Part shown: positions 2,453 to 57,101 of the stretch, piece by piece | Numbering within the stretch: the first letter of the stretch is position 1 | Layout: each line of letters opens with the position of its first letter | Source: Acidimicrobiia bacterium | GTDB taxonomy: Bacteria > Actinomycetota > Acidimicrobiia > Spongiisociales > ZC4RG35 | DNA: 64,000 nt | Assembly: GCA_050741975.1 (NCBI GenBank) | Contig: JBOGET010000120.1 | Location: 17,156-81,155, forward strand | Direction: 5' to 3' | Notes under the pieces: generated by a model | Databases searched by the model: none | What the model was told of the DNA's origin: nothing | Seen by the model: only the letters and a program-made list of their open reading frames with translations | Translations under genes and position numbers: made by a program

Positions 2453-3088
2453 TTACGTCTCGTCGAGCATCTCCTGCAGCGCCCTGCGTGCCCGATGCTG
2501 CAGCTGCTCGACCGACCCCGTGGTCCTCCCGGTGATCTCGGCCACCTGCTTCGAGGTCCAGCCACCCAGCGCCCGCAGGATCAGCACCTCGCTCTGGTCG
2601 TCGGTCAGCCGGTCGAGGAGACCGAGCAGGTCACCGAGTGCGACCGTGGCGAGAGCTTCTCCCTCCACGTCGTCGAGGGATGGAACCGCCTCGTGGATGC
2701 CGGTGTCCAACGGGTCCTCACGTCGCCGGGCGCGACGACGTATGTCGTCGACGCGGCGGGCCCTGGCGATGGTGAACACCCATGCCCTGAACCCTGGGGC
2801 ATCTCCGCGAAATCGTCCGATCCCGCGGGCGACGTCCACGAACACATCACCGAGCACGTCTTCGGCGTCGGGGATGCGACTGGCCCGGAGGTAGCCCAAA
2901 ACCTGGGGGGCGAGCCATTGGTAGAGGACGCGCCATGCTTCATCATCTCCGTGCCGGGCGGCACGGAGATGGATGCGAAACTGGCTGTCCGTGATGCCCG
3001 AACTTGGCCTCATGCAGGGTTTTGGGGGGACACGGAGCCTCGTCTTGGGCTCTTCTCGCCTCCCGGCATCGGGCGGAAGGGCAGTCAA
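2453..3088 (-). CDS. ECF-type RNA polymerase sigma-70 factor
   Basis: Sigma-70 region 2 (WRVLYQWLAPQVLGYL...DAEDVLGDVFVDVARGIGRFRG) and a region 4 HTH (SEVLILRALGGWTSKQVAEITGRTTGSVEQLQHRARRAL). The true start may be the internal Met at about 3013. Confidence 0.8.
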   Translation of the reverse strand: MTALPPDAGRREEPKTRLRVPPKPCMRPSSGITDSQFRIHLRAARHGDDEAWRVLYQWLAPQVLGYLRASRIPDAEDVLGDVFVDVARGIGRFRGDAPGFRAWVFTIARARRVDDIRRRARRREDPLDTGIHEAVPSLDDVEGEALATVALGDLLGLLDRLTDDQSEVLILRALGGWTSKQVAEITGRTTGSVEQLQHRARRALQEMLDET

Positions 3089-3271: not shown

Positions 3272-3562
3272 TCAGGTAAGCCGGCGCACCTCGCCGTCCA
3301 CGACGAGCTGGTCGACGATGCCGACCACGACGGCGCGGATCGCTCCCCGGTCCAGGCCCAGGATCTGGCGGGCGGAGCTCCCCTCGTCGAGGATGAGCAC
3401 GGTGTCACCCACCCCGGCGTCGACGACGTCCACGGCAATGGTGTAGCCCGATGGCTTCCCCTCCACGTCCTGGAGGTCGCAGAGGAGGAGTCGGTGCCGG
3501 TCGAGCAGGGGGATGTTGATGGTGGAGATCACCGTCCCCGCCACCCGTCCCACCTTCATCAC
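3272..3562 (-). CDS. BMC vertex (pentamer) shell protein, EutN/CcmL/PduN family (BMC-P)
   Basis: MMKVGRVAGTVISTINIPLLDRHRLLLCDL...GYTIAVDVVDAGVGDTVLILDEGSSAR matches the PF03319 pattern. A 4-nt overlap with the upstream gene. Confidence 0.85.
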   Translation of the reverse strand: MMKVGRVAGTVISTINIPLLDRHRLLLCDLQDVEGKPSGYTIAVDVVDAGVGDTVLILDEGSSARQILGLDRGAIRAVVVGIVDQLVVDGEVRRLT

Positions 3563-3834
3563 TTCTCCTCCAGATGCACGTCATCGACGATCCCCACGAT
3601 GGCATGGTCGACCGGTACGAATCGCTCGGGCAGCGCTTCGGCCGCTTCCCGCGAGGAGACGAAGTAGACCAGCTCACCGGGCCCGGCCATGGACACCGCG
3701 TCGGCGGCGACCAGGGTCTCCCCGGCGGCCTGCTCGAACTTGTCGAGCGGCTGGACGATGAGAAAACGCACCCCTTCCAGACCGAGGACCTTCTCGGTGG
3801 CCACCACACTGCCCAGGACACGGCCTAGTTGCAT
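3559..3834 (-). CDS. BMC vertex shell protein (BMC-P), second paralog
   Basis: MQLGRVLGSVVATEKVLGLEGVRFLIVQPLD...LVAADAVSMAGPGELVYFVSSREA follows the EutN/CcmL fold pattern. Confidence 0.85.
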   Translation of the reverse strand: MQLGRVLGSVVATEKVLGLEGVRFLIVQPLDKFEQAAGETLVAADAVSMAGPGELVYFVSSREAAEALPERFVPVDHAIVGIVDDVHLEEK

Positions 3835-3835
3835 C

Positions 3836-4447
3836 TCACCCGTCCCCGGCGACGGAGGATACCCGGCTCATGAAATGAAGCTCACCACGCAGATTGTCCG
3901 CCATCTCGTCGTGGAGCTGGGCGATGAGATCCGACCGGACGAGCATGCCATGGTCCCGGGCCCGGTCGGTGGCGGCGTCGAGAGCCGCCTCGACCTCGGC
4001 CACCACACCCGAGAACAGCAGGTAGCCTTTGCCCCCGAGCCCGTCGGCGAGACGGATGGCGGCCAGGCCCACATCGGCTGCCTTGACCCCCGCATCGGCG
4101 GCGTCGATGGCGGCGGCGACAGTCGTGGTCTCCACCACTCCCAATGCCTCGTCCCCGACCGGCGCCATGGTGCTGTTCCCGGTCACCGCTTCGACCACGG
4201 ACGGATGGATGTCGGGGAGAAACACCATGTCGGCCAGGGTCTCCGACCCGACCTCGGTGCCCGCCCTGACCGCCTCCTCGACACTGGCGGTGTCCCCGCT
4301 GACGAGGACCAGGTACTTGCCCGGGTGCACCGTGCCGGCGTAGATGGCACCCAGCGGCGCCGTCTTGACCATGGCGTCACCGGCGACGATGCCGGCGCTG
4401 ATCGAGCCGAACTCGAGGAGAGCGATTGCCGGGTCGCGCTCAGACAA
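3836..4447 (-). CDS. BMC-T tandem-domain shell protein (PduT/CcmO-like)
   Basis: Two PF00936-like domains. Domain 1 is ALLEFGSISAGIVAGDAMVKTAP.... Domain 2 is ALGVVETTTVAAAIDAADAGVKAADVGL.... Confidence 0.8.
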   Translation of the reverse strand: MSERDPAIALLEFGSISAGIVAGDAMVKTAPLGAIYAGTVHPGKYLVLVSGDTASVEEAVRAGTEVGSETLADMVFLPDIHPSVVEAVTGNSTMAPVGDEALGVVETTTVAAAIDAADAGVKAADVGLAAIRLADGLGGKGYLLFSGVVAEVEAALDAATDRARDHGMLVRSDLIAQLHDEMADNLRGELHFMSRVSSVAGDG

Positions 4448-5897
4448 TGCGCAGGGCCCCGACCACGGTCACCCTCCGCACCCGGGAGAAGGTGCGGGGC
4501 CGGGTCATCCCCTCCCCGGTCGGGCTGGCGATGGAGAAAGAGGTGAACCCCTCTCCGCCCTGGCCCAGGCCGTTGAAGTTGGAGCCGTTGGCCACGAAGA
4601 TGCTGCAGTTCATGGCCCGGGCCATCCGGGTGATGGTCTCGACGTTGGTGCTGTGGATGGAGGCCGTGTGCCGGAACCCATGCTCGGAGCGCACCGCCAG
4701 ATCGATGGCATCCTCCACGTTGCCCACCCGGACCACCGGCATCACAGGCATCATCTGCTCAGTCCACACCAGGTTGTGCTCCCTGGGCACCTCGGCGACG
4801 ACGAGACGGGTGTCCTCGCCGGTGGTCACACCGATCTCGGCCAGGATCTTGGCAGCGTCCTTGCCGATCCACTCCGGGTTGATCATCCCCGGCTTCCCGG
4901 GTGGCCCCATCTCCCTGAAGATCACCCGCTCCAGACGCTTCAGCTCGTGCTCCTTGAGCCGGTAGGCCCCGGCGGAGACCATGGCTTGGACCAGACGGTC
5001 GGCCACGGTGTCGACCACGATCGTCGTCTTCTCGTCTGTGCAGATCACGTTGTTGTCGAACGACGCCCCCTTGACGATGGCCCGTCCTGCCCCCTCGACG
5101 TCGGCGGTCTGGTCGACGACGGCAGGGGGATTGCCCGGCCCGGCCGTTATCGCCTTCTTGCTGGTCTTCAGGGCCTCCTTGACCACCCCCGGGCCCCCGG
5201 TCACCAGGAGCACGCTGACCTCGGGGTGGTTCATCAGTTCCCTGGCCGACTCCAGGGTCGGCGACGGAACGGCGGTGACCAGGTCGGACGGGCCGCCGGC
5301 GCCGACGATGGCCCGATTCAAGATCTGGACGTTCTCCACCGAGACCAGCCGGGCATTGGGGTGGACGTTGAAGGTGACGGCGTTCCCGGCGGAGACGATG
5401 GCAATGGCGTTGTTGATGATGGTCGAGGTGGGGTTGGTGGTCGGGGTGATCGAACCGATCACGCCGTATGGGGCGTACTCGGTGACCATCATCCCGGCGT
5501 CGCCGGTGACCACCTGGGGCTCCAAGTCCTCGGGCCCAGGGGTGCGGGTCGTCACCAGGCGGTTCTTCATCGCCTTGTCCTCACCCCGCCCCAGACCGGT
5601 CTCCTCGGCGGCCATGTAACCGAGCCGCTCCCCCTCCCGCAACATGGCGGCCCGCATGGCGTCGACGATGCTCTTGCGGGCCTCCAGCCCCATCTCCCGG
5701 TAGCCGAGGAAGGCGGTCCGGGCCGCCGACACCGCCTGCTCGATGTCGGCATGGATCCCGTCGCCGAGTTGGACGTCGGAGACGGCGAGATCGTCTGCGG
5801 CGCGCAGGGCAGGGGCCGCCCGACCCGAGATCTCGGCGGCGGCAACCCGGCCCCTGACCCGCTCGATGATGGCCTGGATCTCTGCGTCGCTCAGCAT
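4440..5897 (-). CDS. CoA-acylating aldehyde dehydrogenase (PduP/EutE family) with N-terminal encapsulation peptide
   Basis: Aligns along its full length with PduP-type AldDH (GVIGSITPTTNPTSTIINNAIAIVSAGNAV, catalytic FDNNVICTDEK, C-terminal SPTGEGMTRPRTFSRVRRV). N-terminal LSDAEIQAIIERVRG is an amphipathic helix ahead of the catalytic core. Confidence 0.9.
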   Translation of the reverse strand: MLSDAEIQAIIERVRGRVAAAEISGRAAPALRAADDLAVSDVQLGDGIHADIEQAVSAARTAFLGYREMGLEARKSIVDAMRAAMLREGERLGYMAAEETGLGRGEDKAMKNRLVTTRTPGPEDLEPQVVTGDAGMMVTEYAPYGVIGSITPTTNPTSTIINNAIAIVSAGNAVTFNVHPNARLVSVENVQILNRAIVGAGGPSDLVTAVPSPTLESARELMNHPEVSVLLVTGGPGVVKEALKTSKKAITAGPGNPPAVVDQTADVEGAGRAIVKGASFDNNVICTDEKTTIVVDTVADRLVQAMVSAGAYRLKEHELKRLERVIFREMGPPGKPGMINPEWIGKDAAKILAEIGVTTGEDTRLVVAEVPREHNLVWTEQMMPVMPVVRVGNVEDAIDLAVRSEHGFRHTASIHSTNVETITRMARAMNCSIFVANGSNFNGLGQGGEGFTSFSIASPTGEGMTRPRTFSRVRRVTVVGALRIV

Positions 5898-5899
5898 CT

Positions 5900-6211
5900 C
5901 TACCCCGTGGGCGCCTCCTCCCGGCCCTTGTGATATCTCTCCTCGCCGCCCACGTCCCAGGAGTCGACGATCGCCATGATCACCGCATCCACGGGGCGGT
6001 CCCGGGTCAGCTCGGTCTGACGGGCAGAGCTGCCCGAGGCGTAGAGCACCACCTCATCGACCCCGGCGCCGACTGCGTCCACCGCCACCACATAGCCACC
6101 GGTGTCGGAATTGTCGGCGTCGAGCTGACGCACCACCAGGAACTTCATACCCTCCATGAGGGCCTCCTTGCGGCTGGCGACCAGTGTCCCCGCAACGCGG
6201 CCTAGATGCAC
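5900..6211 (-). CDS. BMC vertex shell protein (BMC-P), third paralog
   Basis: [31 protein letters not shown]...[27 protein letters not shown] is EutN/CcmL-like. Confidence 0.8.
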
Positions 6212-6238
6212 AGTGCCATCTCCCGCCCTCGCCGCCGG

Positions 6239-6541
<303 letters not shown>

Positions 6542-6576
6542 GAAGCTGCTCCTTTCGTTGACTTCGGTTCATCGAT

Positions 6577-7236
6577 TCAACCCGATCCTGCGTCCCGCCC
6601 GGAGAGCCCCTCGAGCGCCGCCACGGCCGCCTGCCATCCGACGTCGATGTCCCGCTCTTCGCCACCCAGGTAGACCCGGCCCATCGAGCCGAAGCTGCGC
6701 ACCTCGAGGACGTTGATCTCCGCCGCCTTCTCCGCCTCGTTGGCTGCCAGTGAGGCATAGGCGGCAGGCTCGCACTCGAGGACGTAGAGGGTTTGGCCGG
6801 GGATGATCATCTGACCGTGACGGGTCCGGTTGATGAGCTGGGCATGGTGGTCGTCCAGCCGACGAATGATCTGCGAGGATAGGATGCGGGGCTTGATGCG
6901 GTCGTCCTCGGTGCTCTCGATGCCGTCGAGGATTGCCGCCCCGGCCGCCCTGGTCTCGGCCTGGTCGGGAGAGTGCACCTCGAGGACCCCGTAATAGCGC
7001 TCGATGATCTGCAGCCCGGGTTTGACGGAAGTCGCCTTGAGGGCGACATCGGTCAGGCGGTTGATCTCGATCCCGGGGGCCACCTCGACCCAGAGGGAGG
7101 CATCGCCGGCGAGAGGGAGGAAGCCCTGGGCCACGGTCCCGAGGAAGGCGGCGTACTGGGGCTGGAGGCTGTCCAGGAACGCAAACGACCTCAGCTCAAT
7201 ACCTCTCGTCACCACTACCTCCATCCCTCTTGCCAA
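6577..7236 (-). CDS. Permuted tandem BMC-T shell protein (EutL/PduB-like)
   Basis: About 219 aa with two BMC-like domains. ...[20 protein letters not shown] resembles EutL ...PNPAEVRAGLDAMIAHIENG. The second domain [44 protein letters not shown] resembles the AADAMVKAA...GGG...VAAVKAAV core. The start is uncertain (Met at 7236 or 7224) and overlaps the DeoC 3' end by about 30-40 nt. Confidence 0.6.
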
Positions 7237-8029
7237 CGATCTCGATCCCGGCCGAAGCCCCGATTCTGGTCGCCCCTGCGGCGATCATGTCTTCCGCGTC
7301 ACCCGTGGTGCGGACCCCACCCGAGGCCTTCACCCCCATGTTCGGCCCCACCGTCTCCCTCATCAACGCCACGTCGTACACGGTTGCCCCGCCCGGGCCG
7401 AACCCTGTGGAGGTCTTGACGAAGTCGGCCTTGGCCTGTTTGGCCAGGGCCGAGGCGATGACCTTCTCCTCGTCGGTGAGCAAGGCCGTCTCCAGGATCA
7501 CCTTGCACAAGCCGCCGACCTCGTGGGCGGCGTCGACCACCTTCTCCATGTCCTTCAACACCAACTCGTGGTCGCTGGACTTGAGGGCTCCGATGTTGAG
7601 CACCATGTCGACCTCGCGCGCGCCATCCCTCAGGGCCCGGCGTGCCTCCATCGCCTTCACCTCCGGCGTGGTCGCTCCCAGCGGGAACCCGATCACGGTG
7701 CACACCGGGACCGAGGTGCCCCGGAGGTTCTCGGCCGCTCGCTTGACCCAGGTGGGGTTGATGCACACGGAGGCGAAGTGGTACTGCTCCGCCTCACGGC
7801 AGAGTTGGTCGATGTCGGCGGCGGTCGCCTCCGGTTTGAGCAGGGTGTGGTCGATGTATCGGGCCATGTCGAGGGGGACCTCCGCCGCCTCGCCGTGGAA
7901 GGCAACCCGGTCGGCTCCGTTGGCCACGACCTCGCGAACCTTCTCCCCGGTGTCGCAGACGTCGTAGCGGGCGGACAGCGCGGCCAGCACCTCCCGGGTG
8001 ACCATCTCGACGAGAGTCTCCCGGTTCAT
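7196..8029 (-). CDS. deoC: Deoxyribose-5-phosphate aldolase (class I, DeoC) with ~50-aa N-terminal encapsulation-peptide extension
   Basis: [11 protein letters not shown]...[10 protein letters not shown]...[11 protein letters not shown]...[11 protein letters not shown]...[14 protein letters not shown]...[10 protein letters not shown] aligns with B. subtilis-type DeoC. The start ATG at 8029 overlaps the rpiB stop (ATGA). The extension [23 protein letters not shown] is an amphipathic helix plus linker. Confidence 0.9.
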
Positions 8030-8649
8030 CCGGTGTCCTGTCTCATTCCGACTTTGGAGTATTGCTGCTCGATTGCGTCGATCTTGGCAACCCGGCGGGC
8101 GTGCCGGTCGCCGCCCCATTCGACCGAAAGCCACTCTTCGACGATCTGCCAGGCCAGTGCATCGCCGATCAAGCCCGCTCCCAGGGTGAGGACGTTGGCG
8201 TGGTTGTGCTCCCGGCTGTTGCGGGCGGTGGACAGGTCGTGACAGGGTGCGGCGCGGACACCGGGGACCTTGTTGGCCACCATCGCCGAGCCGATGCCGG
8301 CCCCATCGACGATGACTCCGTAGCGGCAGGCGCCCGATGCCACCTCACTGGCGACCGCATGGGCGAAGTCGGGGTAGTCGACCGAGTCGTGCGAATCCGT
8401 GCCACAGTCGAGTACCTCGTAGCCCGCCTCCTTCAGGCGGAAGCCGATCTTCTCCTTGAGCGGGTACCCGCCGTGGTCGGACCCGATGGCGATCCTCGTC
8501 TTCGTGTCGCCGGGCACCGTCGTCTGCGGGGGCGAGCCGGCCTCCGCGCGCGGAGGCTGATCGGATCCGATGACGCCGTCGATGACACGCTCGACGAGCG
8601 AGCGGACTTCCTGCTCTGTGGGTGAGCTCGGGCCGGCGGGAGATGTCAT
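8026..8649 (-). CDS. rpiB: Ribose-5-phosphate isomerase B (RpiB/LacAB family) with ~55-aa N-terminal extension
   Basis: [18 protein letters not shown]...[17 protein letters not shown]...[24 protein letters not shown]...NHANVLTLG is the RpiB fold. N-terminal [17 protein letters not shown] helix followed by a Pro/Thr linker. It is the first gene of the operon. Confidence 0.85.
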
Positions 8650-8671
8650 CGGGCTGGGTGCGGCCTCACCT

Positions 8672-8694
8672 GGCCCATCCTAGGAAGATGGGCC
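8672..8694. promoter_or_regulatory. Inverted repeat GGCCCATC-N7-GATGGGCC in divergent promoter region of BMC operon
   Basis: An 8-7-8 perfect inverted repeat about 25 bp upstream of the rpiB start, between the BMC operon and the divergent HTH gene. Confidence 0.25.
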
Positions 8695-8726
8695 GGCGCC
8701 ACGGTCTTGCCCGGCCTCATGTTCTT

Positions 8727-9398
8727 ATGATGCCTCGCATGGCCGATCGGGACCCTGCCTTTCTCTGGGAGACCGAGGCGCTTCGCACCTCGGCGACGTC
8801 TCCGGGCGGCCCGCCACCCATCGCGCGATCGGCGCCGGCCGACTGGCTGACCTTGCGCCAGGCGAGCGCCGCCACCGGGATCCCGGTGTCGACCCTCCGC
8901 AACTGGGCCCGGAAGGGCAAAGTCGCCAGCTCGCTCGAGGAGACCCCCGCCGGGGCCCGTCGAATGGTCTCGCTGAAGGGGGTTGAGGACCGGGCCCGTC
9001 AGTTGGGACAGAATGTCGACGCGGTGGTCGAGACGATGGGTACGGAAATCCCCCCGACCTCGGTCCGGCAGGATCAGGTCTCACAACCCCCGGGGACGGT
9101 GCTGGTCCCCATCGATGCCTGGGACAAGATGCTGCTCCAACTGGGAAACCTGCACCAGGCCGGTCAACAATTGGCCGAGGCCAGGGAACGGGCTGCCCGG
9201 GCAGAGACCGAGGCCGACTTCCTCCGGGAGCGGTTGGCCGAGCTGAGATCCTCCAAACCCGGCTCCGACCCGGTCCACCCGACGGTGGAGGCGCCGCCTC
9301 CTATCGAGGAGGAGCCCGAGCCGGCCAAACCAACGAGGATGCCCAGCTTCACCGCCTATTTGTGGCGTCTTGCCGTGTCGGACAGGCGCCGGAAGTAG
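8727..9398 (+). CDS. Excisionase/MerR-superfamily helix-turn-helix DNA-binding protein with coiled-coil C-terminus
   Basis: WLTLRQASAATGIPVSTLRNWARKGKV is an excisionase-family HTH. C-terminal AEARERAARAETEADFLRERLAELR is helical. The track ORF starts at 8622; Met at 8727-8739 is more likely because it clears the rpiB start. Confidence 0.5.
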   Translation: MMPRMADRDPAFLWETEALRTSATSPGGPPPIARSAPADWLTLRQASAATGIPVSTLRNWARKGKVASSLEETPAGARRMVSLKGVEDRARQLGQNVDAVVETMGTEIPPTSVRQDQVSQPPGTVLVPIDAWDKMLLQLGNLHQAGQQLAEARERAARAETEADFLRERLAELRSSKPGSDPVHPTVEAPPPIEEEPEPAKPTRMPSFTAYLWRLAVSDRRRK

Positions 9399-9416: not shown

Positions 9417-10106
9417 TCAAGGTCGCGCGGGAGATTCCTCGAAGATCCGCCCGTCGTTGAGGTGGAGCACGCGGTGGGCGTGGTCGGCCAGACCTGGGTC
9501 GTGCGTCGCCACCAGGGCGGCGAGACCGAGGCGGTCGACGAGCTCGCGGATCATCCTCATCAACTTCAGCCCGGTCTCCGAGTCGAGCTGGCCTGTCGGC
9601 TCGTCGGCAAGGAGGATCGACGGCTCGGTGACCAGTGCCCGCGCCAGCGCCACACGCTGCTGTTCTCCGCCCGAGAGCTCCTCCGGCCGATGGTCGGCCC
9701 GGGCGGTCAACCCGACCCGGCTCAGGACCTCGTCCACCAGCCTCGCCCTCTCCACGGGGTCGACCCTGCTCACCCGGAGCGGGAGCTCGACGTTCTCGGC
9801 GGCGGTGAGGATCGGGATCAATCCGCCCGACTGCACCACCAGCGAGACCTTGCTCCTTCGCAGCTCGGAGAGCTCACGCTCGCCGGCGGTGGAGAGATCG
9901 AGCCCATTCAGGCTGATCGAGCCCTCGTCGGGGCGGTCGATCCCGGCCAGCATCGACAAGAGGGTGGTCTTTCCCGCTCCCGACCGGCCCAGCAGGAGAA
10001 CCAGTTCGCCGGGGCGTAGGGCGAGATCGACCCCGTCGATGGCCCTGATCTCAGCGTCTCCCACCTGGAATCGGCGGTGCAGGTCGGTGGCCAGCAATAC
10101 CGTCAC
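9417..10106 (-). CDS. ABC transporter ATP-binding protein (MacB/FtsE-like)
   Basis: Walker A LLGRSGAGKTT, signature LSGGEQQRVALARAL, Walker B LLADEPTGQLD. The likely GTG start overlaps the upstream gene's stop (GTGA). Confidence 0.85.
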   Translation of the reverse strand: MTVLLATDLHRRFQVGDAEIRAIDGVDLALRPGELVLLLGRSGAGKTTLLSMLAGIDRPDEGSISLNGLDLSTAGERELSELRRSKVSLVVQSGGLIPILTAAENVELPLRVSRVDPVERARLVDEVLSRVGLTARADHRPEELSGGEQQRVALARALVTEPSILLADEPTGQLDSETGLKLMRMIRELVDRLGLAALVATHDPGLADHAHRVLHLNDGRIFEESPARP

Positions 10107-11023
10107 GAACCGATGCCTTTGAAGTCCGAAGGCCATACCCGCACGTGGTCCTCCTCCAACGTCAGCTTCACCCGTTTCGCCATCCCCAGCCGCTCCACAT
10201 ACTCGGCGGGCAGCTGGAGCCTCCCGGCGCGATCGAGAACAGCGAACTCCGAGGAGGGAACCCGGCCTTCCTCGTCACGGTGAATGATCTCGGTGGCAGT
10301 CCTCCCGTCGCGAATGGCAACGGTCCGGTCGACGTGCTCGGCTATGAGGGGGTCATGGCTGACCACGACCGCCGACATCCCTAGCTCCTCGTTGAGAGTC
10401 CGGAGCGTGCTGAGGACCTCGTGGCTGGTGGCGCTGTCGAGGTCACCGGTCGGCTCGTCGGCGAGGAGCACCTCGGGATCGTTGGCCAGCGCAACCGCCA
10501 GAGCCACCCGCTGCTGCTCTCCGGGGGAGAGCCGCCCCGGCCGGTGGTCGAGCCGGTGGGACATCCCCACCATCGCGAGCAGCTGGCGGCCTCTGCTCAT
10601 CCTGGCCCACTTGGGGAGACCGGCCAGCGCCGAAGGGAGGTCGACGTTCTCCAGCGCCGTCAGATAAGGAAGGAGATTGCGGGCGCTCTGCTGCCAGACG
10701 AACCCGACCGCTCGCCTCCGGTATTGGACCCGGCGTCGGCGCGACATGCGGAGCAGCTCGAAATCACCTACCCGGACCTTCCCCGCCGTCGGGGTGTCGA
10801 TGGCGCCCAGGATGTTGAGCAAAGTCGACTTCCCGCTTCCCGACGCGCCCACTACCGCCACCATCTCGCCGCGGTCCACCACCAGGTCGAGACCCTGGAG
10901 GGCGACCACCTCGAGCTTCGATGACGAGTAGATCTTGACGAGGTTGTCGCAGACGATGTGGGCGCCCTCGCCAAACCCGGGCGCATGTTGATGGTCGGGG
11001 ATCATCACTGGCTCGATCATCAT
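10103..11023 (-). CDS. ABC transporter ATP-binding protein with ~70-aa C-terminal extension
   Basis: VVGASGSGKSTLL, LSPGEQQRVALAVAL, LLADEPTGDLD. Extra C-terminal domain (...EFAVLDRAGRLQLPAEYVERLGMAKRVKLTLEEDHVRVWP). Confidence 0.85.
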   Translation of the reverse strand: MMIEPVMIPDHQHAPGFGEGAHIVCDNLVKIYSSSKLEVVALQGLDLVVDRGEMVAVVGASGSGKSTLLNILGAIDTPTAGKVRVGDFELLRMSRRRRVQYRRRAVGFVWQQSARNLLPYLTALENVDLPSALAGLPKWARMSRGRQLLAMVGMSHRLDHRPGRLSPGEQQRVALAVALANDPEVLLADEPTGDLDSATSHEVLSTLRTLNEELGMSAVVVSHDPLIAEHVDRTVAIRDGRTATEIIHRDEEGRVPSSEFAVLDRAGRLQLPAEYVERLGMAKRVKLTLEEDHVRVWPSDFKGIGS

Positions 11024-13680
11024 CGCACCTCGCTCCGAAGAGCCTCAACCGCATCGGCCGCGCCCAACCTCCTGCCGGCGACGACGGCGACGACCACTGC
11101 CACGATGACGAGGACCGCCGGCGCCACCAGGAGCCCAAGCGGGTCGACGGTCGGGCCCACCCTCCCCGGGGCCCCGGTGAGCCGGGCGAGGGCGGACGCC
11201 TCCACCCCGAGCCTCACCGCTACGATGCCGGCCAGGACTCCGGCGAGGGTGGCGGGAACCACCGGGACCACGAGCTCCAGCGTCACCAGCGCCGACATCG
11301 ACGGCCGCGGCACCCCGATGAGGTCGAGATGGGCCGCCTCGTTGGCCCGGCGCGACCCAGTGAGCAAGGCAACCAACAAGATGGTGGCGACACCAAAGAT
11401 GAGCGACACCACCGACACCGTCCGGAATCCTCCCGGGACCGCGGCCGAGAAGGGGGAGGCGCTCAGATCGGCGACGACGCCGCGCCGCACCGTCACCGAC
11501 GCCGTGGACTCGACGCCTTCTACCAACTCGGCGATCGCCACGTCCCCGTCGACCGGCGCATCGGGTGTGAGGTCGAGATAGAGGCGGTCGAGGCGCTGCT
11601 CGATCAGCGGCGCGGCTCTGATCGCCTCATCGAGGAAGGTGACGACAAACGGCGCCTGGACCGACGGGAACTCGTCTACTACCCCCTCCACCTCGACCAT
11701 GACCCTTTGGCCGCCAAGGATGAGGGCAATGACGTCGCCCGGCTCACCCACCCCCGGAGAGACCAGGGCGGACAGCCGGGCCCCACGTGAAGGCAACGGA
11801 ACCGGGATCGGCGAACCAGAGCCGATCCTCGACAGGGCGTCGAGGTCGGCGGCGAGAAACCCGACATCTCGGGCCTGTCCCAGGACCTTGACGTTCTCCG
11901 CGTAGGCGAGGGTGGTCTCGCCGACCTCAGCCATCGACTCGAGACCCGCCTCCTCCACGATGGTGGCCACCGCGTCCGACTCGATCATCAGGTCGGCGCC
12001 CACGGTGCGCCACCCCGTGCGCTCTTGCTCGGTGCGAAGTGTGGTCTCGAACACGAAGGCGTAGGTGGCGGTGGTGACGACCAGGACCACGACCACCGGC
12101 AGCGCCAGACCCTGCCGGTCCCGGCTGAACCGCCGGAGCACCAACGCCGCCACCAGCCCACGTCCACGACGGGCGGCGGCGGCCAGGGAAGGGGCCACGA
12201 GCGAGTAGAGCCGTACCAGCACCAAGGCCGCGGCCAGTGCGAGAAGCGGCGGGGCGAGGGCGAGCAAGAGGTCGAACCGCCCGAGCGGCTCCGCCCGTCG
12301 CCGAGCGAGGAGGATGGCGACCACCACGGCGAGGGCCACCACACCCACCTCGACGGCCGCCCTACCCACCCTCTCCAAACGTCCCGTCGCCCGGGGAGCG
12401 TCCCACCACACTGTCACAATCGCCACGATGAGCGTCACGAGGAAGGCGATTGCCCCTGCCTGCCACGCCGACAACCCGTCGAGAGCAGTCAGACGGTCTG
12501 CCACGATGGCGGCCAGCGTCCCTGCCAGGGCCGAGAGTGCCAAGGTCGCCGCGGTCGACGTCGTGATCTGGAGCCCGTTCGCTCCCCGGTCCCGCGCCAG
12601 TTCGGTGGTGTGCCGCCTTCTCTCGGCCAGGAACCGTGCAAGCACGAGGATGGCGGCGAGTGCTGCCAGAGCCGCCGAGATGCCGGCCACCAAGAGGAAG
12701 CTCCGAGTCGCCTCGAGGTCCGCCTCCGCCCGTGTGAAGATGTTGGGGAGCCCGCTCTGGATGAGAAGGCCGTCCCCGGCGGGATGGCTCAGCTCGGAGA
12801 GCCTGGCGAAGCCGAGCGAGAGGGCGTCCCGCCCGGCGGGGTCGTAACGCCCCGGATCGACCAGGAACCGCCAGGTGACCCTGGGTTCGATGACGCCCAA
12901 CCCGACCGCTTCGACGGCAGCCAGCGAACCGTCGTCCACGAGTGCGGTGACGTCGACCAACTTGTTGAGGTTCGCATCGAACGACACCGCCGGGTCGAGA
13001 AGAGCGATATCCCCGCCCCAGAACCTCTCGTCGCGGTCGACGCCCTCGAACAGGCCGGTCACCACGACCTCGAAGGGCATCGCCCGTCGACCAGCGAGGA
13101 ACAGCCTGCGACCATCGCCGGTCAGCCTCACCTCGACCACATCGCCGACGCCAACCTCCGTCGCCGAGGCGGAGGCCGAGCTCAGCGCCACCTCCAAGGG
13201 CTCGGTGCCGACCTTGGGCCTCGGCCAGGAGCCCTCGACGAGGGCGAGGTGGTCCCGTGCGGTTGGCTGAACACGGAAGTTGAAGGTCCGCAGGAGCTCC
13301 CCGGTGGGGGTGGTCGGGCTCGTCATTCCCACTTGCGGAGCCTCCATTTCCACCCGTCGATCGGCGACGAGGGCGGCGACCTGGGGATGGAGCTCCTCAT
13401 CGAGGATCCGCCCGCCCTCGCCGGTGAGGGCACTCAACGACGCCACCGAGGTGAACTGCGTGGCGGTGATGTGACGCGTCAGCGGCGAGGACTGCGACAC
13501 CAGGTAGGGGAACTGGGCCGCCTCGACCGATTGGTAATCGGCACTGAGTGCCGCGGCGGCGTGGGTGAGGGACCCCACCAACACCATGACGGCGAGGCTC
13601 ACCGGGCCGTCCCACCGGGCAAGCAGGGTCACGGGGCGAAGCAGCGACCAGCCCCCCCGACCGACCGGCTCGCTCACCAT
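11020..13680 (-). CDS. ABC transporter permease, double FtsX-domain type (TM-ECD-3TM-TM-ECD-3TM)
   Basis: Two large extracytoplasmic domains, each followed by an FtsX-like TM cluster. The track ORF is extended to 14229; Met at about 13680 abuts the upstream gene's stop. Confidence 0.75.
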   Translation of the reverse strand: MVSEPVGRGGWSLLRPVTLLARWDGPVSLAVMVLVGSLTHAAAALSADYQSVEAAQFPYLVSQSSPLTRHITATQFTSVASLSALTGEGGRILDEELHPQVAALVADRRVEMEAPQVGMTSPTTPTGELLRTFNFRVQPTARDHLALVEGSWPRPKVGTEPLEVALSSASASATEVGVGDVVEVRLTGDGRRLFLAGRRAMPFEVVVTGLFEGVDRDERFWGGDIALLDPAVSFDANLNKLVDVTALVDDGSLAAVEAVGLGVIEPRVTWRFLVDPGRYDPAGRDALSLGFARLSELSHPAGDGLLIQSGLPNIFTRAEADLEATRSFLLVAGISAALAALAAILVLARFLAERRRHTTELARDRGANGLQITTSTAATLALSALAGTLAAIVADRLTALDGLSAWQAGAIAFLVTLIVAIVTVWWDAPRATGRLERVGRAAVEVGVVALAVVVAILLARRRAEPLGRFDLLLALAPPLLALAAALVLVRLYSLVAPSLAAAARRGRGLVAALVLRRFSRDRQGLALPVVVVLVVTTATYAFVFETTLRTEQERTGWRTVGADLMIESDAVATIVEEAGLESMAEVGETTLAYAENVKVLGQARDVGFLAADLDALSRIGSGSPIPVPLPSRGARLSALVSPGVGEPGDVIALILGGQRVMVEVEGVVDEFPSVQAPFVVTFLDEAIRAAPLIEQRLDRLYLDLTPDAPVDGDVAIAELVEGVESTASVTVRRGVVADLSASPFSAAVPGGFRTVSVVSLIFGVATILLVALLTGSRRANEAAHLDLIGVPRPSMSALVTLELVVPVVPATLAGVLAGIVAVRLGVEASALARLTGAPGRVGPTVDPLGLLVAPAVLVIVAVVVAVVAGRRLGAADAVEALRSEVR

Positions 13681-16600
13681 TGCTCCACTCCACGTCGGGC
13701 CGGCGCCGCCCTCATCGTGCGGGCCCGTCCTACCACCGCCAGGAGCATGACCACCAGCACCAGCCCGATCCCGGCAACCACGAGGAGCGCCCGAATCGCC
13801 GGAAGCTCCACGGTGGCGGCAGGCACCGGTTGGCGCCCATCGGACCCGAGCGTCACCGATCCGAGCAGGAGGTAGGAGAGGAGGACCCCCAGCCCCCCAC
13901 CGGCGAGCCCTGAAAAGAGGAGCAAGGCGCCATGCTCGACCGCCAGAGCGGTCGACAGTTGGCGCGAGCTCATCCCGGCCATGATCATGACGATCATCTC
14001 GGAGCGCCGCTCCTCGAGGGCGGAGGCCAGCGCCGTCGCCATGATCACCGCAGCCAGCAAGGCAGCCAGGGCTGCACCGAGATACGACGCCGCCAGAAGG
14101 CCCAGCGGCAGCGGGTCGCCCAAGAGCTCGGCGAGCCGCCCGGCGCGGGTGGTCACCTCGGCGGCGCCGGCCGCCAGCAGCGCCGACCGAGCCGCCGCAG
14201 GGTCGCCTCGATCCAAAGAAGCCCACCACTCGTCAGGGCCGCCCACTCTTCCCGACGCGGCGAACTCCAGCGTCGCAAGAGCAGCGCGGTCCATGACGAT
14301 GATCCCGTCGTCGGGGTCGCCCGTGGGAAAGAGCTCGACCACGCCCACTACCTCGAACTCACGGCGCAGGCCGGCGAAGACGAGCTGGAAATGATCCCCG
14401 TCGCCGACGACCGACGCCGAGGCAAAGGTCTCGTTGACGATCACCGCGATTGGCGCGTCGACCGGAGGGGTGGACGCCAGGTACCTGGTCACGGTGTTGA
14501 CACCGTCCGATTCTCCCGGCAGCGCAACCCAATCGAGGGTCAAGGAGACGGTTCCGGAGTCCGACTCGACGATCACCGCTTCCGGACGCGCATCGGGCGC
14601 ATCCACCACCACCCCGATCACCGTCAGCGGCGTCGAGGCCTCATCGAGGGCTCCTGCGCCCTCCAACCATTCTCTCGGGGCCAGGGCGGGACCTGCCGCG
14701 CCGGAAAGCACATGGAGCACGCCTTGGAAGTCGCGGACCACGAGCTCGACCCGGGCCGGTCGGTCGGTGACGACGGCGACTCGTCGGGGAGCTCCCAGCT
14801 CCACTCCGAGACCGGCCCAGGCCCCTCCCAACTCGTCGGCGCGCAGAATGCCACCAAGGGGACGTCCTCGTACCAGGCCGATGTCCGCCACCCCGGGCCC
14901 CACACCGAGCACGACGCCACCGTCGGTGGCCGAGGCCAGCGACAGGGCCCTCCGGGTGACTGGGACGACCGAACTCACACCTGGCGCCGCTGCGAAGCCG
15001 GTGCCTTCGCCGAAGGGCGCCGGGTCGGTCTCCAGAGCCCTCTCCGGGATGATCAAGGCGTCGGACCCGACCTGGTGCGAGGCGCGATCGGCCTGCGAGT
15101 TGGTCCAGGTGGCGTCAAATGCAAGGGCGAAGACCAGCATCGCCACCGCCAGCACGGTGAGGATCGATGAGTGGGTATGACGCCCAGCACGCGAGCCGAA
15201 GTTCCTCATCCCCAACCACAGCGGGACGGCCTCGGTACCTGAGGTCAGCCTGGCTGTTCCGGCGCTGGCCGCCGGAACGAGACGGGCCGCGACCGAAGGG
15301 GCCAGGAGCAACGCCACCGCCGGAACCGCGAGGAGGGCGGGATCGCCGCCGCTCGCCAGCCGGGGCGGGTTGAAGAGCAGGACCGCCATCGCCACCACAG
15401 CGATCCCAGCCAGAACCAAGTCGATCCGGGTGCGGCGGAGGAGGTCGGGGGCGGGTGACCCGATGCGTGAGGCCATGAGAGCCACCAGCGCCACGGCCAC
15501 GGCGATGGCGCCACCGGCGAAGACGTAGGCGGTGGCGTCGAGTCCCGCTTCGAGGATCAGTCCGGCCTCCACGAAGGTGGGCAGCCTTCCCAGGGCGTCG
15601 ACTGCCCAGGATGCCAACCACGGTCCGGCGACCACTGCCGGGATCCCGAGGAGAGTCGCCTGCAAGGCTCCCGCGATCATCATCTGCCGGCGTGTGCCGC
15701 CCCGCAGCTCGATCGTTTGGTAGTGGCGGCGCAGCGACGCCATCAACGACGCGGCTGCCGACCACATGGCAAAGCCGGCCATCAACGAAAGCTGCACGGA
15801 GGTGGCGTTGATCCCGGCGGAGGAGACCTCCACCTTCCTCCGCAGGTCTGCTTCGAGAGTCGGGAAGTCGGATTCGACGCCGACCTCGAGCGCCGCCAGA
15901 CGCTCGTCGACAGACCGCATGCCGTCGGAGACCCGCCCCAGGTCATCCGAGGTGATCGATCCGAAATCGGGAAAGACCCGCCATTCCTGACGGGCCCCAT
16001 AGCCCTCCACCACGTCGTCGAAGCTCCGGCCTGAGACGACCAGAGGCCCGGTGACGACGAACTCCGCCGTGACCCGGCGCCCGGCCGTCTCCAGGAGCTC
16101 GCCCCACCAGAACGGGTCCTGGGCGTCGACAACCCGGAAGATCCCCGCCACCGACACGGTCAGTCGGTCATGGGAGCCACCGGAGACCTCGATTCCGACA
16201 CTGTCTCCCACAACAAGACCGAGGGCGGCGGCGGCCTGCTCGGAGAGCGCAACCGGAAGCGTTTCTCCCGGTCCGACGTCTCCCGGCCAGGTCCCTTCCA
16301 CCAGCTCGGCGTGCCCCTCGATTCCCTCATGGGCGACGATGACGGTGGTGTCATAGGGCGTGGGATCGTCTTGCCAGGTGAAGGGCGCAGACTGCCGGAT
16401 CTCCGACACGGTCGCACCGGGGAGCCCATCGGAGACGACCCCGGTCACCGCGGCCGACAACTCATCCATGGAGGCAGCCCGGACCGGCGCCGAGCCCCGC
16501 AGGCCGACCGCCTCCACCGGCGCCGCCGCCAGCGCGGCGCGGAGCCCGGCGTCGCCAACAGCAGAGGAGAGGATCGGGCCTACCGACACCGAGACCGCAG

Positions 16601-16691
16601 CGACGAGGAGGATGAGGGCGGCAGAAGCCGACGCCACCGGGCGGGCGCCGATCGCCCTCAGGCTTCGCCCCAGGCTCCCAGAGCCGCTCAC
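13674..16691 (-). CDS. ABC transporter permease, double FtsX-domain type (paralog)
   Basis: 1005 aa with the same architecture as its neighbour: N-terminal TM, large ECD, FtsX TM clusters. Confidence 0.75.
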   Translation of the reverse strand: MSGSGSLGRSLRAIGARPVASASAALILLVAAVSVSVGPILSSAVGDAGLRAALAAAPVEAVGLRGSAPVRAASMDELSAAVTGVVSDGLPGATVSEIRQSAPFTWQDDPTPYDTTVIVAHEGIEGHAELVEGTWPGDVGPGETLPVALSEQAAAALGLVVGDSVGIEVSGGSHDRLTVSVAGIFRVVDAQDPFWWGELLETAGRRVTAEFVVTGPLVVSGRSFDDVVEGYGARQEWRVFPDFGSITSDDLGRVSDGMRSVDERLAALEVGVESDFPTLEADLRRKVEVSSAGINATSVQLSLMAGFAMWSAAASLMASLRRHYQTIELRGGTRRQMMIAGALQATLLGIPAVVAGPWLASWAVDALGRLPTFVEAGLILEAGLDATAYVFAGGAIAVAVALVALMASRIGSPAPDLLRRTRIDLVLAGIAVVAMAVLLFNPPRLASGGDPALLAVPAVALLLAPSVAARLVPAASAGTARLTSGTEAVPLWLGMRNFGSRAGRHTHSSILTVLAVAMLVFALAFDATWTNSQADRASHQVGSDALIIPERALETDPAPFGEGTGFAAAPGVSSVVPVTRRALSLASATDGGVVLGVGPGVADIGLVRGRPLGGILRADELGGAWAGLGVELGAPRRVAVVTDRPARVELVVRDFQGVLHVLSGAAGPALAPREWLEGAGALDEASTPLTVIGVVVDAPDARPEAVIVESDSGTVSLTLDWVALPGESDGVNTVTRYLASTPPVDAPIAVIVNETFASASVVGDGDHFQLVFAGLRREFEVVGVVELFPTGDPDDGIIVMDRAALATLEFAASGRVGGPDEWWASLDRGDPAAARSALLAAGAAEVTTRAGRLAELLGDPLPLGLLAASYLGAALAALLAAVIMATALASALEERRSEMIVMIMAGMSSRQLSTALAVEHGALLLFSGLAGGGLGVLLSYLLLGSVTLGSDGRQPVPAATVELPAIRALLVVAGIGLVLVVMLLAVVGRARTMRAAPARRGVEQW

Positions 16692-24402: not shown

Positions 24403-26277
24403 GTGGCCGACGAGATCGCCACAGCTGACCCTTCAACCACAACCACGACCGAGACCCTCGAAAAAGTCGTTGTCCGATTCGCCGGTGACTCCGGCGACGG
24501 GATGCAGGTAGCCGGATCGAGATTCACCGACGCCAGCGCCCTCTTCGGGAACGATTTGGCAACGCTCCCCTCTTTCCCAGCTGAGATCCGTGCCCCGGCC
24601 GGGACCCTCCCCGGGGTCTCCAGCTTCCAGGTCCAGATCGCCGACTTCGACATCCTGACCGCGGGCGACCAGCCCGACTGCCTGGTGGCGATGAACCCGG
24701 CGGCGTTGAAGAAGAACATCAAGGACCTGCGTCAGGGCGGGACCCTGATCGTCAACACCGACACCTTCGACGAGCGCAACCTGGCCAAGGCCGGCTACCA
24801 GGCCGATCCCCTGGAGGACGGAACCCTCGAAGGCTTCAGGGTGATACAAGTGCCCATGGACGAGCTCACCAAGGAGGCCGTCAAGGACACCGGGGTGTCG
24901 GGGCGCAGCGTGCTGCGCTCCAAGAACTTCTTCGCCCTCGGGCTGCTCGCCTGGCTGTTCCACCGCCCCACCGAACCGACCATCGAATGGGCGCAGAAGA
25001 AGTTCTCCCGGACCCCCGAGGTGGCTGCGGCCAACGTCGCAGCCTTCCGGGCCGGGTACACCTTCGGTGTGGCCACCGAGGCGGCCAAGATCACGTTCGA
25101 GGTCAAGCCCGCCGCACTGCGACCGGGCACCTACACCAACGTCAACGGCAACACCGCACTGGCCTGGGGGCTGATCACCGCCTCCAAGCTCTCCGGTCTG
25201 CCCCTGTTCTACGGGAGCTACCCCATCACCCCGGCGTCGGACATCCTCCATGAGCTGGCCCGCCACAAGAACTTCGGGGTGCGGACCTTCCAGGCCGAAG
25301 ACGAGATCGCCGGCGTCGGAACCGCCATCGGCGCCGCCTTCGCCGGGAACCTGGCCGTCACCGGGTCCTCGGGCCCGGGCATCGCCCTCAAGAGCGAGGC
25401 GATCTCAATGGCGTTCATGATGGAACTGCCACTGATCGTGATCAACGTCCAGAGGGGCGGCCCCTCCACCGGTCTCCCCACCAAGCCGGAGCAGTCGGAC
25501 CTGCTGTTCTCCCTCTACGGGCGTCATGGCGAATCACCGATCCCGGTGCTTGCGATCGCATCGCCATCGGACGCCTTCGAGATGACGATCGAAGCGGCGC
25601 GCATCGCACTCACGTACATGACCCCGATCTTGCTCCTAAGCGACAACCAGGTCGCCAACGGCTCCGAGCCGTGGAGACTGCCCGACATCGACGCAATCCC
25701 ACCCATCGACGTCCACTTCGCCAAGCATCCCAACGGGCCCAACGGCACGTTCCTCCCCTACATGCGTGACATCGACACCTTCGCCCGTCCCTGGGCCCTC
25801 CCCGGCACTCCCGGGCTGGAGCACCGGATCGGCGGTCTGGAGAAGGAGGCCATCACCGGCAACGTGTCTTACGACCCGGCCAACCACCAGCTCATGACCG
25901 ACTCGCGTGCCTGGAAGGTGGCCAACATCGTCAACGACATCCCCGATCTCGAGGTGAGCGGCGATGAGGATGCGGCGATCCTGGTGCTGGGCTGGGGCTC
26001 GACCTTCGGCTCGATCCGGGCTGCCGCCCGCAGAGTGAGATTGGAAGGAAAGAAGGTGGCCACCACCCATCTCCGCCATCTCAATCCGCTTCCCCAGAAC
26101 CTGGGCGAGATCGTGCACCGATACGACCAGATCCTGATCCCGGAGTTGAACACGGGTCAGCTGCGGAAGGTGATCAGGGCCGAGTACCTGGTCGACGCCA
26201 AGGGCCTGAACAAGGTCGCCGGTGAGCCGTTCAAGATCTCGGAGATAACAGAGAAGATCCTGGAGATGATGAAGTGA
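24403..26277 (+). CDS. korA: 2-oxoacid (2-oxoglutarate):ferredoxin oxidoreductase alpha subunit
   Basis: 624 aa actinobacterial KorA-like. GTG start with an AAGGAAG RBS. A 4-nt overlap with korB. Confidence 0.8.
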   Translation: MADEIATADPSTTTTTETLEKVVVRFAGDSGDGMQVAGSRFTDASALFGNDLATLPSFPAEIRAPAGTLPGVSSFQVQIADFDILTAGDQPDCLVAMNPAALKKNIKDLRQGGTLIVNTDTFDERNLAKAGYQADPLEDGTLEGFRVIQVPMDELTKEAVKDTGVSGRSVLRSKNFFALGLLAWLFHRPTEPTIEWAQKKFSRTPEVAAANVAAFRAGYTFGVATEAAKITFEVKPAALRPGTYTNVNGNTALAWGLITASKLSGLPLFYGSYPITPASDILHELARHKNFGVRTFQAEDEIAGVGTAIGAAFAGNLAVTGSSGPGIALKSEAISMAFMMELPLIVINVQRGGPSTGLPTKPEQSDLLFSLYGRHGESPIPVLAIASPSDAFEMTIEAARIALTYMTPILLLSDNQVANGSEPWRLPDIDAIPPIDVHFAKHPNGPNGTFLPYMRDIDTFARPWALPGTPGLEHRIGGLEKEAITGNVSYDPANHQLMTDSRAWKVANIVNDIPDLEVSGDEDAAILVLGWGSTFGSIRAAARRVRLEGKKVATTHLRHLNPLPQNLGEIVHRYDQILIPELNTGQLRKVIRAEYLVDAKGLNKVAGEPFKISEITEKILEMMK

Positions 26278-27302: not shown

Positions 27303-27313
27303 ACCGCATTCCT

Positions 27314-27349
27314 AATGCAGGGCGTCACGCATGCGTGACGCCCTGCATT
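27314..27349. terminator. Bidirectional intrinsic terminator (36-bp perfect palindrome)
   Basis: AATGCAGGGCGTCACGCATGCGTGACGCCCTGCATT lies between convergent korB (ends 27302) and paaR (ends 27375). Confidence 0.6.
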
Positions 27350-27374
27350 GCGTTTGGGCTGAGGAGGGGCCTTC

Positions 27375-27950
27375 TCAGGCGATGCCGGTCAGGGCGAAGG
27401 CGAGGATGGCGTCGACCAGTCCGTCCCGGTCCAGCTCCCCGTCCGGCCGGTACCAGCGCTGCAATGCGTTGAGGATGGAGAGGGTGAAGATCGAGACGAC
27501 CTTGGGGTCGACGTCGCCCCGAAACGAGCCGTCCCGCACCCCGTCCGCCACGACCTGGCGGAACGCCTGCTCATAGACATCCCGGGCGGCGATCACCCGG
27601 GCCCGATGCTCCTCGTCGAGCATGCGGGCCTCGTTGAGGAAGGTGCGGACGATGTCCTGGTTGGCCAGGACGACATCGACATGACCTGTGACCAGGGCCC
27701 GCAGCCGATCCGAGCCCGACCCCTCGACCGCCAGTGCCGTCTGCGCCGACTCCTGGAAGAGACGGGCCCCCTCCTCGACCACCGCGACCAGAAGGTCCTG
27801 CTTGGACTCGACGTGGGCATAGAGCGAGGAGCCGAGCAGGCCCAGCTCCCGCCCCAGGACGCGCATCGACGTCCCGTGATACCCCTTCTCGGCGAACAAC
27901 CGGCCGGCGGCGGCGACCACGTCGGCACGGCTGTTTCGAGTCGTGACCAT
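27375..27950 (-). CDS. paaR: TetR-family transcriptional regulator, probable PaaR
   Basis: N-terminal TetR HTH (AGRLFAEKGYHGTSMRVLGRELGLLGSSLYAHVESKQDLL). The start codon overlaps the paaE stop by 1 nt. Confidence 0.7.
   Translation of the reverse strand: MVTTRNSRADVVAAAGRLFAEKGYHGTSMRVLGRELGLLGSSLYAHVESKQDLLVAVVEEGARLFQESAQTALAVEGSGSDRLRALVTGHVDVVLANQDIVRTFLNEARMLDEEHRARVIAARDVYEQAFRQVVADGVRDGSFRGDVDPKVVSIFTLSILNALQRWYRPDGELDRDGLVDAILAFALTGIA

Positions 27951-57029: not shown

Positions 57030-57101
<72 letters not shown>

Follow-up and report, generated by a model that had tools for sequence, protein, structure and literature searches.

The 64-kb window analyzed here, a 64,000-nucleotide stretch of contig JBOGET010000120.1 from an Acidimicrobiia-like actinobacterium, contains nine tightly packed minus-strand genes (positions 3272-8649) predicted to encode bacterial microcompartment (BMC) shell proteins and three cargo proteins, one of which is a CoA-acylating aldehyde dehydrogenase (AldDH). 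Because genes annotated as deoxyribose-5-phosphate aldolase (DERA) and as a protein similar to ribose-5-phosphate isomerase B (RpiB-like) are present, the locus was assigned to the sugar-phosphate-utilizing (SPU) BMCs, and it very probably belongs to the SPU3 type. The best explanation of the locus as a whole (probability of about 0.75) is an SPU3 BMC with no internal recycling of CoA and NAD+, in which cofactors would be exchanged through a gated double-stacking permuted tandem shell trimer similar to CcmP (BMC-Tdp, here Tdp). A preliminary description of this DNA had compared the locus with the propanediol utilization (PDU) and ethanolamine utilization (EUT) systems and had presented the missing recycling partners of AldDH as an anomaly. 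That framing did not survive, as the same features define the published SPU3 type; since this type lacks recycling enzymes, the missing PduL and alcohol dehydrogenase (ADH) are a type-defining feature and not a gap. The SPU identity had been overlooked because the upstream DERA and RpiB-like genes were not weighed.

The SPU type was named in 2014 (Axen 2014) and was later widened to cover >280 loci from 26 phyla (Sutter 2021). The enzymes given for SPU3 are only AldDH, PF01791, and PF02502, with N-terminal encapsulation peptides (EPs) on AldDH and PF01791, and its shell comprises one standard BMC-H, a BMC-P triplet, a CcmP-like Tdp, and a BMC-Ts tandem protein (Ts) without a pore cysteine or PduS; SPU3 host phyla include Actinobacteria, and satellite loci are uncommon (Sutter 2021 Supp. 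Data 2). Across the SPU types, phosphotransacylase (PTAC) is nearly confined to SPU1, SPU4, and SPU7, and ADH occurs only in some SPU2, SPU4, and SPU6 loci (Dwyer 2024). In the window, the SPU3 enzyme set was found together with a CcmP-like Tdp, a cysteine-less Ts without PduS, and three BMC-P genes. DERA is encoded alongside shell genes, has an N-terminal extension, and retains its D/K/K residues, and AldDH (PF00171) is of the acylating BMC type with a predicted EP. The preliminary description had counted three BMC-P paralogues and called this number unusual for one compartment; the count stands (three PF03319 genes), and the judgment does not, as a BMC-P triplet is the minimum in every SPU locus (Dwyer 2024).

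Recycling enzymes were sought in the window and in related loci. From the window (G+C content, 65-70%), 66 open reading frames (ORFs) were called on the basis of third-position GC content (GC3). Pfam scanning covered the nine locus genes and 55 further GC3-supported ORFs, omitting two ORFs of ~1,000 amino acids at 11020-16691, and detected none of PF06130, PF01515, PF00465, zinc-dependent ADH, PF00871, or PduS-type domains in these genes. Judged by eye, two gaps between gene calls, outside the Pfam scan, hold an ORF resembling a release factor and what looks like an alpha/beta hydrolase. Six-frame tblastn of the window with Klebsiella PduL, PduQ, PduS, and PduW and Escherichia coli EutD (seeds taken from annotated plasmid records) returned nothing at an E value of <0.01, and nearly all called window genes were thereby covered by Pfam scans as well as tblastn. 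These results bear out the preliminary claim that no PduL, phosphotransacetylase (PTA), ADH, or acetate kinase is encoded at 3272-8649 or in the window flanks. Relatives were taken as the best 80 of 540 found (one genome per species; AldDH identity, 71-93%), with loci read to ±10 kb; across 82 related loci (~1.2 Mb), no tblastn match to any of the five seeds was found within 10 kb of the cassette. Of the parts that form the core of a canonical metabolosome, a co-encoded phosphotransacylase (PF06130/PF01515) was absent from the window and the 82 loci, and a co-encoded ADH or PduS/MNdh was likewise absent (no PF00465, zinc-dependent ADH, or PduS, and a Ts without the CPGK cysteine). Triosephosphate isomerase (TPI), like PTAC and ADH, is not among the locus enzymes, which in the window and its relatives are AldDH, PF01791, and PF02502. 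Genes for the supply of deoxyribose-5-phosphate (deoA and deoB) were not found near the cassette, and an Rfam scan of the window revealed no riboswitch upstream of the operon, the sole match being a tRNA elsewhere.

The nine-gene order was identical in all of the 80 best related loci with a long enough contig, and the best AldDH relative was 93% identical, an exact match to the AldDH sequence having been sought without result. The related loci were labeled mostly as Acidimicrobiia, with others labeled Actinomycetota, Gaiellaceae, Acidobacteriota, or other groups. Flanks varied between lineages, and the recurrent Pfam-labeled flank families were housekeeping families. EamA, Glucosamine_iso, DLH, NUDIX/His_Phos, polyphosphate kinase, and MurJ were rejected as hidden partners on this ground, as were the EPSP synthase, glutamine synthetase, and ABC transporter neighbors; three more recurrent flank families (188 to 297 amino acids) had no Pfam match. 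Because the order is conserved, the flanks differ, and no recycling enzyme was matched in the 82 loci, the cassette is a self-contained unit under purifying selection and not a fragment.

These neighborhoods also bear on whether an EP-tagged PduL or other PTAC, together with ADH or a PduS-type NADH dehydrogenase, might be encoded at a satellite site and co-packaged, which would give the compartment private CoA and NAD+ pools like those of PDU and EUT. BMC systems often have satellite loci, and some SPU types keep PduS/T pairs or DERA there (Sutter 2021), and the DNA examined amounts to ~64 kb of the source genome and ±10 kb of its relatives. We nevertheless consider such partners unlikely: satellites are uncommon in SPU3, for which only three enzymes are listed (Sutter 2021), none of the 80 best related loci had such a gene nearby despite differing flanks, the cysteine that serves as Fe-S ligand, required for pairing with PduS/MNdh, is missing from the Ts, and the presence of Tdp correlates with the absence of PTAC across SPU types (Dwyer 2024; PMC12747264).

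In SPU loci that lack PTAC, a Tdp is typically present, and acetyl-CoA has been proposed to exit via its ~14-Å gated pore (Dwyer 2024); archaeal SPU-like loci similarly lack PTAC and have Tdp (PMC12747264, 2025 preprint). The steps proposed for the window locus were derived from the published SPU model and from the families of the locus enzymes. Deoxyribose-5-phosphate would enter the shell and be cleaved by DERA to glyceraldehyde-3-phosphate, which would leave, and acetaldehyde, which would be retained; AldDH would then oxidize the acetaldehyde to acetyl-CoA, using NAD+ and CoA. Acetyl-CoA and NADH would pass out, and CoA and NAD+ in, via the large gated Tdp pore, and the RpiB-like protein would help to package DERA. 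Among the three alternatives raised in the preliminary description (cofactors crossing the shell, partners encoded elsewhere, or a compartment that operates differently), the first is the best supported and is the same as the published hypothesis. Whether Tdp traffic of cofactors is obligatory in this compartment we would put at even odds. The fuller picture of a minimal "open-cofactor" metabolosome, with two active enzymes, a dead RpiB-like scaffold, no private CoA or NAD+ pool, dependence on Tdp, and possibly a further role for a ring of histidines in the Ts, is offered tentatively, at a little short of even odds.

Several points weigh against an SPU3 BMC that exchanges its cofactors with the cytoplasm. 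The passage of CoA and NAD(H) through Tdp is something that we infer. A PduS homologue has been reported in all SPU subtypes except SPU6 (Dwyer 2024), which is awkward beside its total absence here. The SPU3 assignment was made by gene content and features, not by the shell-protein color clades of Sutter 2021 or an AldDH tree. The search covered the window and ±10 kb of relatives, so that EP-tagged PduL, ADH, or PduS could be encoded at a distance, and, with one enterobacterial sequence per protein as the tblastn seed, very divergent homologues in the relatives' loci may have escaped.

Of the shell proteins, Tdp was most similar by phmmer against the PDB to CcmP (4HT5; E = 4e-85), followed by the BMC-T proteins of the Haliangium ochraceum (HO) BMC (5V74/5V76; ~1e-71) and CsoS1D (3F56; 2e-54). 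Its gating pair, Glu79-Arg80 within the motif IIERYYG, was invariant in 73 orthologues. The likely Tdp start is the ATG at 7224, and orthologue genes carry PF27545 (CsoS1D_N). Tdp scored 340.9 bits against the cut-off of 340 for the NCBIfam equivalog "beta-carboxysome protein CcmP" (NF053796); automatic annotation would therefore label it a carboxysome protein, although the region has no carboxysome genes. In BMC-H, the interface motifs K25 and R78-P79-H80 (RPH) were invariant in 77 orthologues. The three BMC-P proteins have pairwise identities of 32 to 43%, with paralogue 1 being 41 to 43% identical to the other two.

An alternative route for electrons has been described in which PduS/MNdh docks on a Ts with a CPGK motif and electrons are exported (PMC12747264). 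The Ts in the window contains no cysteine (0 Cys) and has the motif HPGK in place of CPGK; in the alignment to Klebsiella PduT, His41 occupies the position of Cys38, the ligand of the 4Fe-4S cluster of PduT. Of 79 orthologues, 77 have His at this position and the other 2 have Gln. The Ts scored 100 bits against TIGR02526 (eut_PduT), under the cut-off of that model. In a Ts trimer, three His41 residues would line the pore.

The preliminary description had assigned an N-terminal EP to AldDH, and the sequence comparisons and structural model both predict that this EP is real, because a family consensus, a hidden Markov model (HMM) with its shuffle control, conservation, and AlphaFold2 agree. AldDH representatives at ≤50% identity share the N-terminal consensus (I/L)(D/S)Exx(I/V)xx(I/V)VxxV(V/L)xxL, after which come a linker rich in Ala, Pro, and Ser and the domain start GVF..(D/E)EA; the N terminus of the window AldDH, MLSDAEIQAIIERVRGRV, fits the register of this consensus. 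An EP HMM built solely from the distant AldDH N termini (representatives at ≤50% identity) scored the first 24 residues of the window AldDH at 12.1 bits, a value reached by none of 2,000 composition-preserving shuffles (maximum, 10.4 bits) and far above internal 24-mers (≤4.9 bits). The predicted EP helix spans residues ~3 to 25 (nucleotides ~5823-5891), the flexible linker residues ~26 to 46 (nucleotides ~5760-5822), and the catalytic domain begins at residue ~47. Consistent with these boundaries, the AlphaFold2 model (mean predicted local distance difference test [pLDDT] score, 90.5) places a helix at residues 4 to 25, gives pLDDT scores of <50 at residues 18 to 40, and folds confidently from residue ~45. 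Mean identity to the window AldDH across 79 orthologues was 0.73 in the EP, 0.58 in the linker, and 0.82 in the domain. In an Eisenberg hydrophobic-moment scan, the AldDH N terminus did not stand out (rank 85 of 472), and DERA was likewise not discriminated. The further statement that the AldDH N terminus aligns with the EP of PduP applies to its hydrophobic pattern and class only: the Klebsiella PduP EP scored 3.6 bits against the AldDH-family EP HMM, and the resemblance is therefore not one of sequence.

No need for CoA recycling would arise if AldDH were non-acylating or used another acceptor and simply converted acetaldehyde to acetate. This is very unlikely given that AldDH scored 602.8 bits (cut-off, 403) against NF011927, the EutE/PduP-type subfamily, and far lower on every non-acylating aldehyde dehydrogenase model. 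Its best solved relatives are also CoA-acylating BMC aldehyde dehydrogenases (5JFL, E = 7.8e-120; 4C3S) and the aldehyde domains of AdhE, and catalytic Cys286 was invariant in the orthologue alignment. In the AldDH consensus, AGPGNPP presumably stands in place of ELGGK, which we take to be the general-base motif of hydrolytic aldehyde dehydrogenases, and this too would count against a non-acylating enzyme.

All three cargo proteins have N-terminal extensions, consisting of an EP helix and linker on the RpiB-like protein and AldDH and of ~52 residues on DERA. In DERA, residues D141, K205, and K234 correspond to D102, K167, and K201 of E. coli DeoC (BLASTP) and were invariant in 68 orthologues. 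Its extension (nucleotides ~7874-8029) was 0.64 to 0.76 identical across orthologues and is unmatched in the solved DERA structures, all of which begin to align at residue 51 or beyond, and most of them at residues 53 to 59. The EP helix of the RpiB-like protein (residues ~10 to 28; nucleotides ~8566-8622) had the top hydrophobic moment of that protein (rank 1 of 194), and its linker (residues 31 to 50) is hypervariable, with an identity of 0.14 versus 0.73 for the domain. Solved RpiB structures all align only from residues 45 to 52 onward. Residues 52 to 196 match residues 3 to 147 of E. coli RpiB (2VVR) in equal spans, which were taken as ungapped (offset, 49); on this ungapped reading, Asp115 is at the position of E. 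coli Cys66 and Ala117 at that of Thr68, and both residues were invariant in 68 orthologues. As the equivalents of Cys66 and Thr68 are lost, the RpiB-like protein is probably, by analogy, not an isomerase but a partner in the packaging of DERA. In SPU6, an RPI (ribose-5-phosphate isomerase) that has no catalytic Cys is inactive and associates with DERA in a complex, and it is only with the Chloroflexi SPU6 DERA that activity on deoxyribose-5-phosphate and compartment formation have been demonstrated (Dwyer 2024).

It could also be argued that a cryptic recycling activity resides in the RpiB-like protein, in the DERA extension, or in the His-lined Ts pore as a redox or acyl-transfer element, the more so as the RpiB-like protein is strictly conserved despite the loss of its canonical catalytic residues and the Ts pore His is kept in 77 of the 79 orthologues. 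We regard this as highly improbable. None of the locus proteins resembled PTAC, ADH, or flavoproteins in sequence, the extensions (~50 residues) are too short for a PduL domain, and the DERA-RPI complex is structural only (Dwyer 2024). The preliminary description had named a cryptic PTAC among the listed genes as an observation that would overturn it; this candidate was rejected, as all nine genes have strong full-length family assignments (Pfam and NCBIfam) and the extensions are short.

The operon reads, in order, RpiB-like, DERA, CcmP-like BMC-Tdp, BMC-H, BMC-P, AldDH, BMC-Ts, BMC-P, and BMC-P (Table 1). At the inspected junctions (RpiB/DERA, BMC-P/AldDH, and AldDH/Ts), genes overlap or are spaced by 2 nucleotides: the DERA start ATG overlaps the RpiB-like stop codon as ATGA, the AldDH ATG lies 2 nucleotides past the BMC-P stop codon, and the start of Ts and the end of AldDH share 8 nucleotides. 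The minimal enzyme set and the apparently dead isomerase might suggest a metabolosome that was once fuller and is now in decay, forming no functional compartment. The probability of such decay is negligible, given nine intact ORFs with GC3 values of 0.77 to 0.93, the same gene order in the best 80 related genomes (71-93% AldDH identity), and invariant catalytic and shell-interface residues.

Table 1. Features of the BMC locus and its immediate surroundings, with window coordinates and supporting family matches
Feature	Coordinates	Strand	Evidence
RpiB-like protein, 207 aa	8026..8649	-	PF02502, E=1.6e-52; NF004051, 173 bits
DERA, 277 aa, signature enzyme	7196..8029	-	TIGR00126 deoC equivalog, 284.8 bits (cut-off 117.3)
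CcmP-like double-stacking permuted tandem BMC-Tdp trimer	6577..7236	-	NF053796 CcmP, 340.9 bits
BMC-H hexamer shell protein, 100 aa	6239..6541	-	PF00936, E=5.3e-29
BMC-P pentamer (vertex) paralogue 1, 103 aa	5900..6211	-	PF03319, E=8.8e-28
CoA-acylating AldDH, 485 aa	4440..5897	-	PF00171, E=4.9e-38; NF011927, 602.8 bits
PduT-like tandem BMC-Ts, 203 aa	3836..4447	-	PF00936 x2, E=2.3e-33
BMC-P paralogue 2, 91 aa, adjoins paralogue 3	3559..3834	-	PF03319, E=2.2e-24
BMC-P paralogue 3, 96 aa, final operon gene	3272..3562	-	PF03319, E=1.1e-19
Divergent conserved gene, 219 aa from MADRDPAFLWETEAL, putative regulator	8739..9398	+	Conserved position; sub-threshold MerR/HTH_17
Sigma factor (Sigma70_r2/r4) and two acidic/basic-tailed ORFs without a Pfam match	695-1573, 1601-2422, 2453-3088	-	Pfam

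The sole conserved neighbor of the cassette is a divergently transcribed gene, found upstream in 58 related loci (for example, at 6424-7080 in L001 and 6355-7107 in L002). In the window, 89 bp (8650-8738) separate it from the operon. At the N terminus of its predicted product is the motif RDPAFLWETEALR, and a coiled-coil segment is almost invariant: PPGTM(I/L)VPIDAWDKML.QLGNLH.AGQQLAEARERAA.AETEA.FLRERLAELR. Pfam scores for MerR and HTH_17 were below threshold and recurred in three members (E = 6e-5 to 0.1), and no NCBIfam match or curated family was found for this gene. Judged from these sequence features, it is plausibly a regulator of the SPU3 operon.

The window flanks encode an extracytoplasmic function (ECF) sigma factor, an ABC transporter, MetRS, Ni-SOD, paa genes, an ATP synthase operon, WhiB, and Ku/LigD, and are ordinary actinobacterial chromosome. 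The ECF-type sigma factor (Sigma70_r2/r4) is encoded just downstream from the operon and adjoins the cassette in few relatives (L006, L010, and L014); beyond it are two ORFs that lack a Pfam match and whose C-terminal tails are extremely rich in Asp, Glu, Arg, and His. On the other side, the minus-strand region 9417-16691 holds two ABC ATPase genes and then ORFs of ~1,000 amino acids (11020-14229 and 13674-16691) that resemble large membrane permeases; the N-terminal regions of both are Arg/Gly-rich and may be miscalled. At 24403-31495, POR, POR_N, and TPP_enzyme_C domains (2-oxoacid:ferredoxin oxidoreductase) occur beside a PaaA/PaaC-family cluster and a ferredoxin reductase; this cluster is for aromatic-acid catabolism and is unrelated to the BMC. 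A tRNA gene (57030-57101, plus strand; Rfam, 67.9 bits) lies beside a pair of genes for Ku and a LigD-like ATP-dependent DNA ligase (57285-59023). Among the relatives, L003, L005, L007, and L009 (92-93% AldDH identity) are labeled "uncultured Acidobacteriota" yet share the Acidimicrobiia-type cassette and Pfam-labeled neighbors, and these labels look wrong.

The locus represents a sizeable Acidimicrobiia clade of a known, recently characterized BMC type. The SPU3 features are published, so that as an anomaly the locus matters little. It serves the question of how CoA and NAD+ are supplied to AldDH in a metabolosome without PTAC, ADH, or PduS, which has been answered provisionally in the literature, where the exit of acetyl-CoA via Tdp is already a published hypothesis. 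What would be new, if true, is that Tdp traffic is obligatory and also covers NAD(H), across a clade that counts at least 80 genomes and lacks every known recycling device. The compact cassette, with nine genes and three cargo proteins, would be a handy natural test case for cofactor traffic through Tdp and for the scaffold role of an inactive RpiB-like protein.

Among known systems, the CcmP of beta-carboxysomes is closely related to the window Tdp. Carboxysome cargo (RuBisCO, CcmM/N, and carbonic anhydrase) was not found in the window, the CcmP-like protein being the only component present; as the locus has no RuBisCO or carbonic anhydrase, it is not a carboxysome. The HO BMC shares the BMC-P triplet, and the window Tdp is close to HO BMC-T2/T3, with the E-R gate kept; the main HO loci, however, have a class II aldolase and no DERA or RpiB, whereas the window locus has DERA and the RpiB-like protein. 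With PDU and EUT, the locus shares the AldDH family (Klebsiella PduP is 44% identical over residues 26 to 461), an N-terminal amphipathic EP, and a BMC-H/P/T shell. It differs from them in the absence of PduL/EutD, PduQ/EutG, PduS, a B12-dependent signature enzyme, and the Ts Fe-S Cys, and in the presence of Tdp, a protein that almost all PDU/EUT loci lack.

Within the SPU group, the Chloroflexi SPU6 BMC, the only SPU type with biochemistry (Dwyer 2024), shares with the window the DERA extension and D/K/K residues, the absence of PTAC, and the presence of Tdp, and its EP-bearing RPI likewise has Asp in place of the catalytic Cys. In contrast to the window AldDH, with its N-terminal EP, the SPU6 AldDH carries its EP at the C terminus and belongs to another AldDH branch; SPU6 further differs in its Tdp, which is of the "blue" clade and not CcmP-like, and in its EutQ-like protein. 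With regard to SPU3 itself, RpiB and DERA are fused in 12 to 20 published loci and are separate genes in the window, and the accessible part of the published description does not mention an Acidimicrobiia clade (at least 80 genomes), the divergent MerR-like gene, or the Ts-pore His. The window and SPU3 are otherwise alike in having no PTAC or ADH, two adjacent BMC-P genes, and RpiB upstream of DERA.

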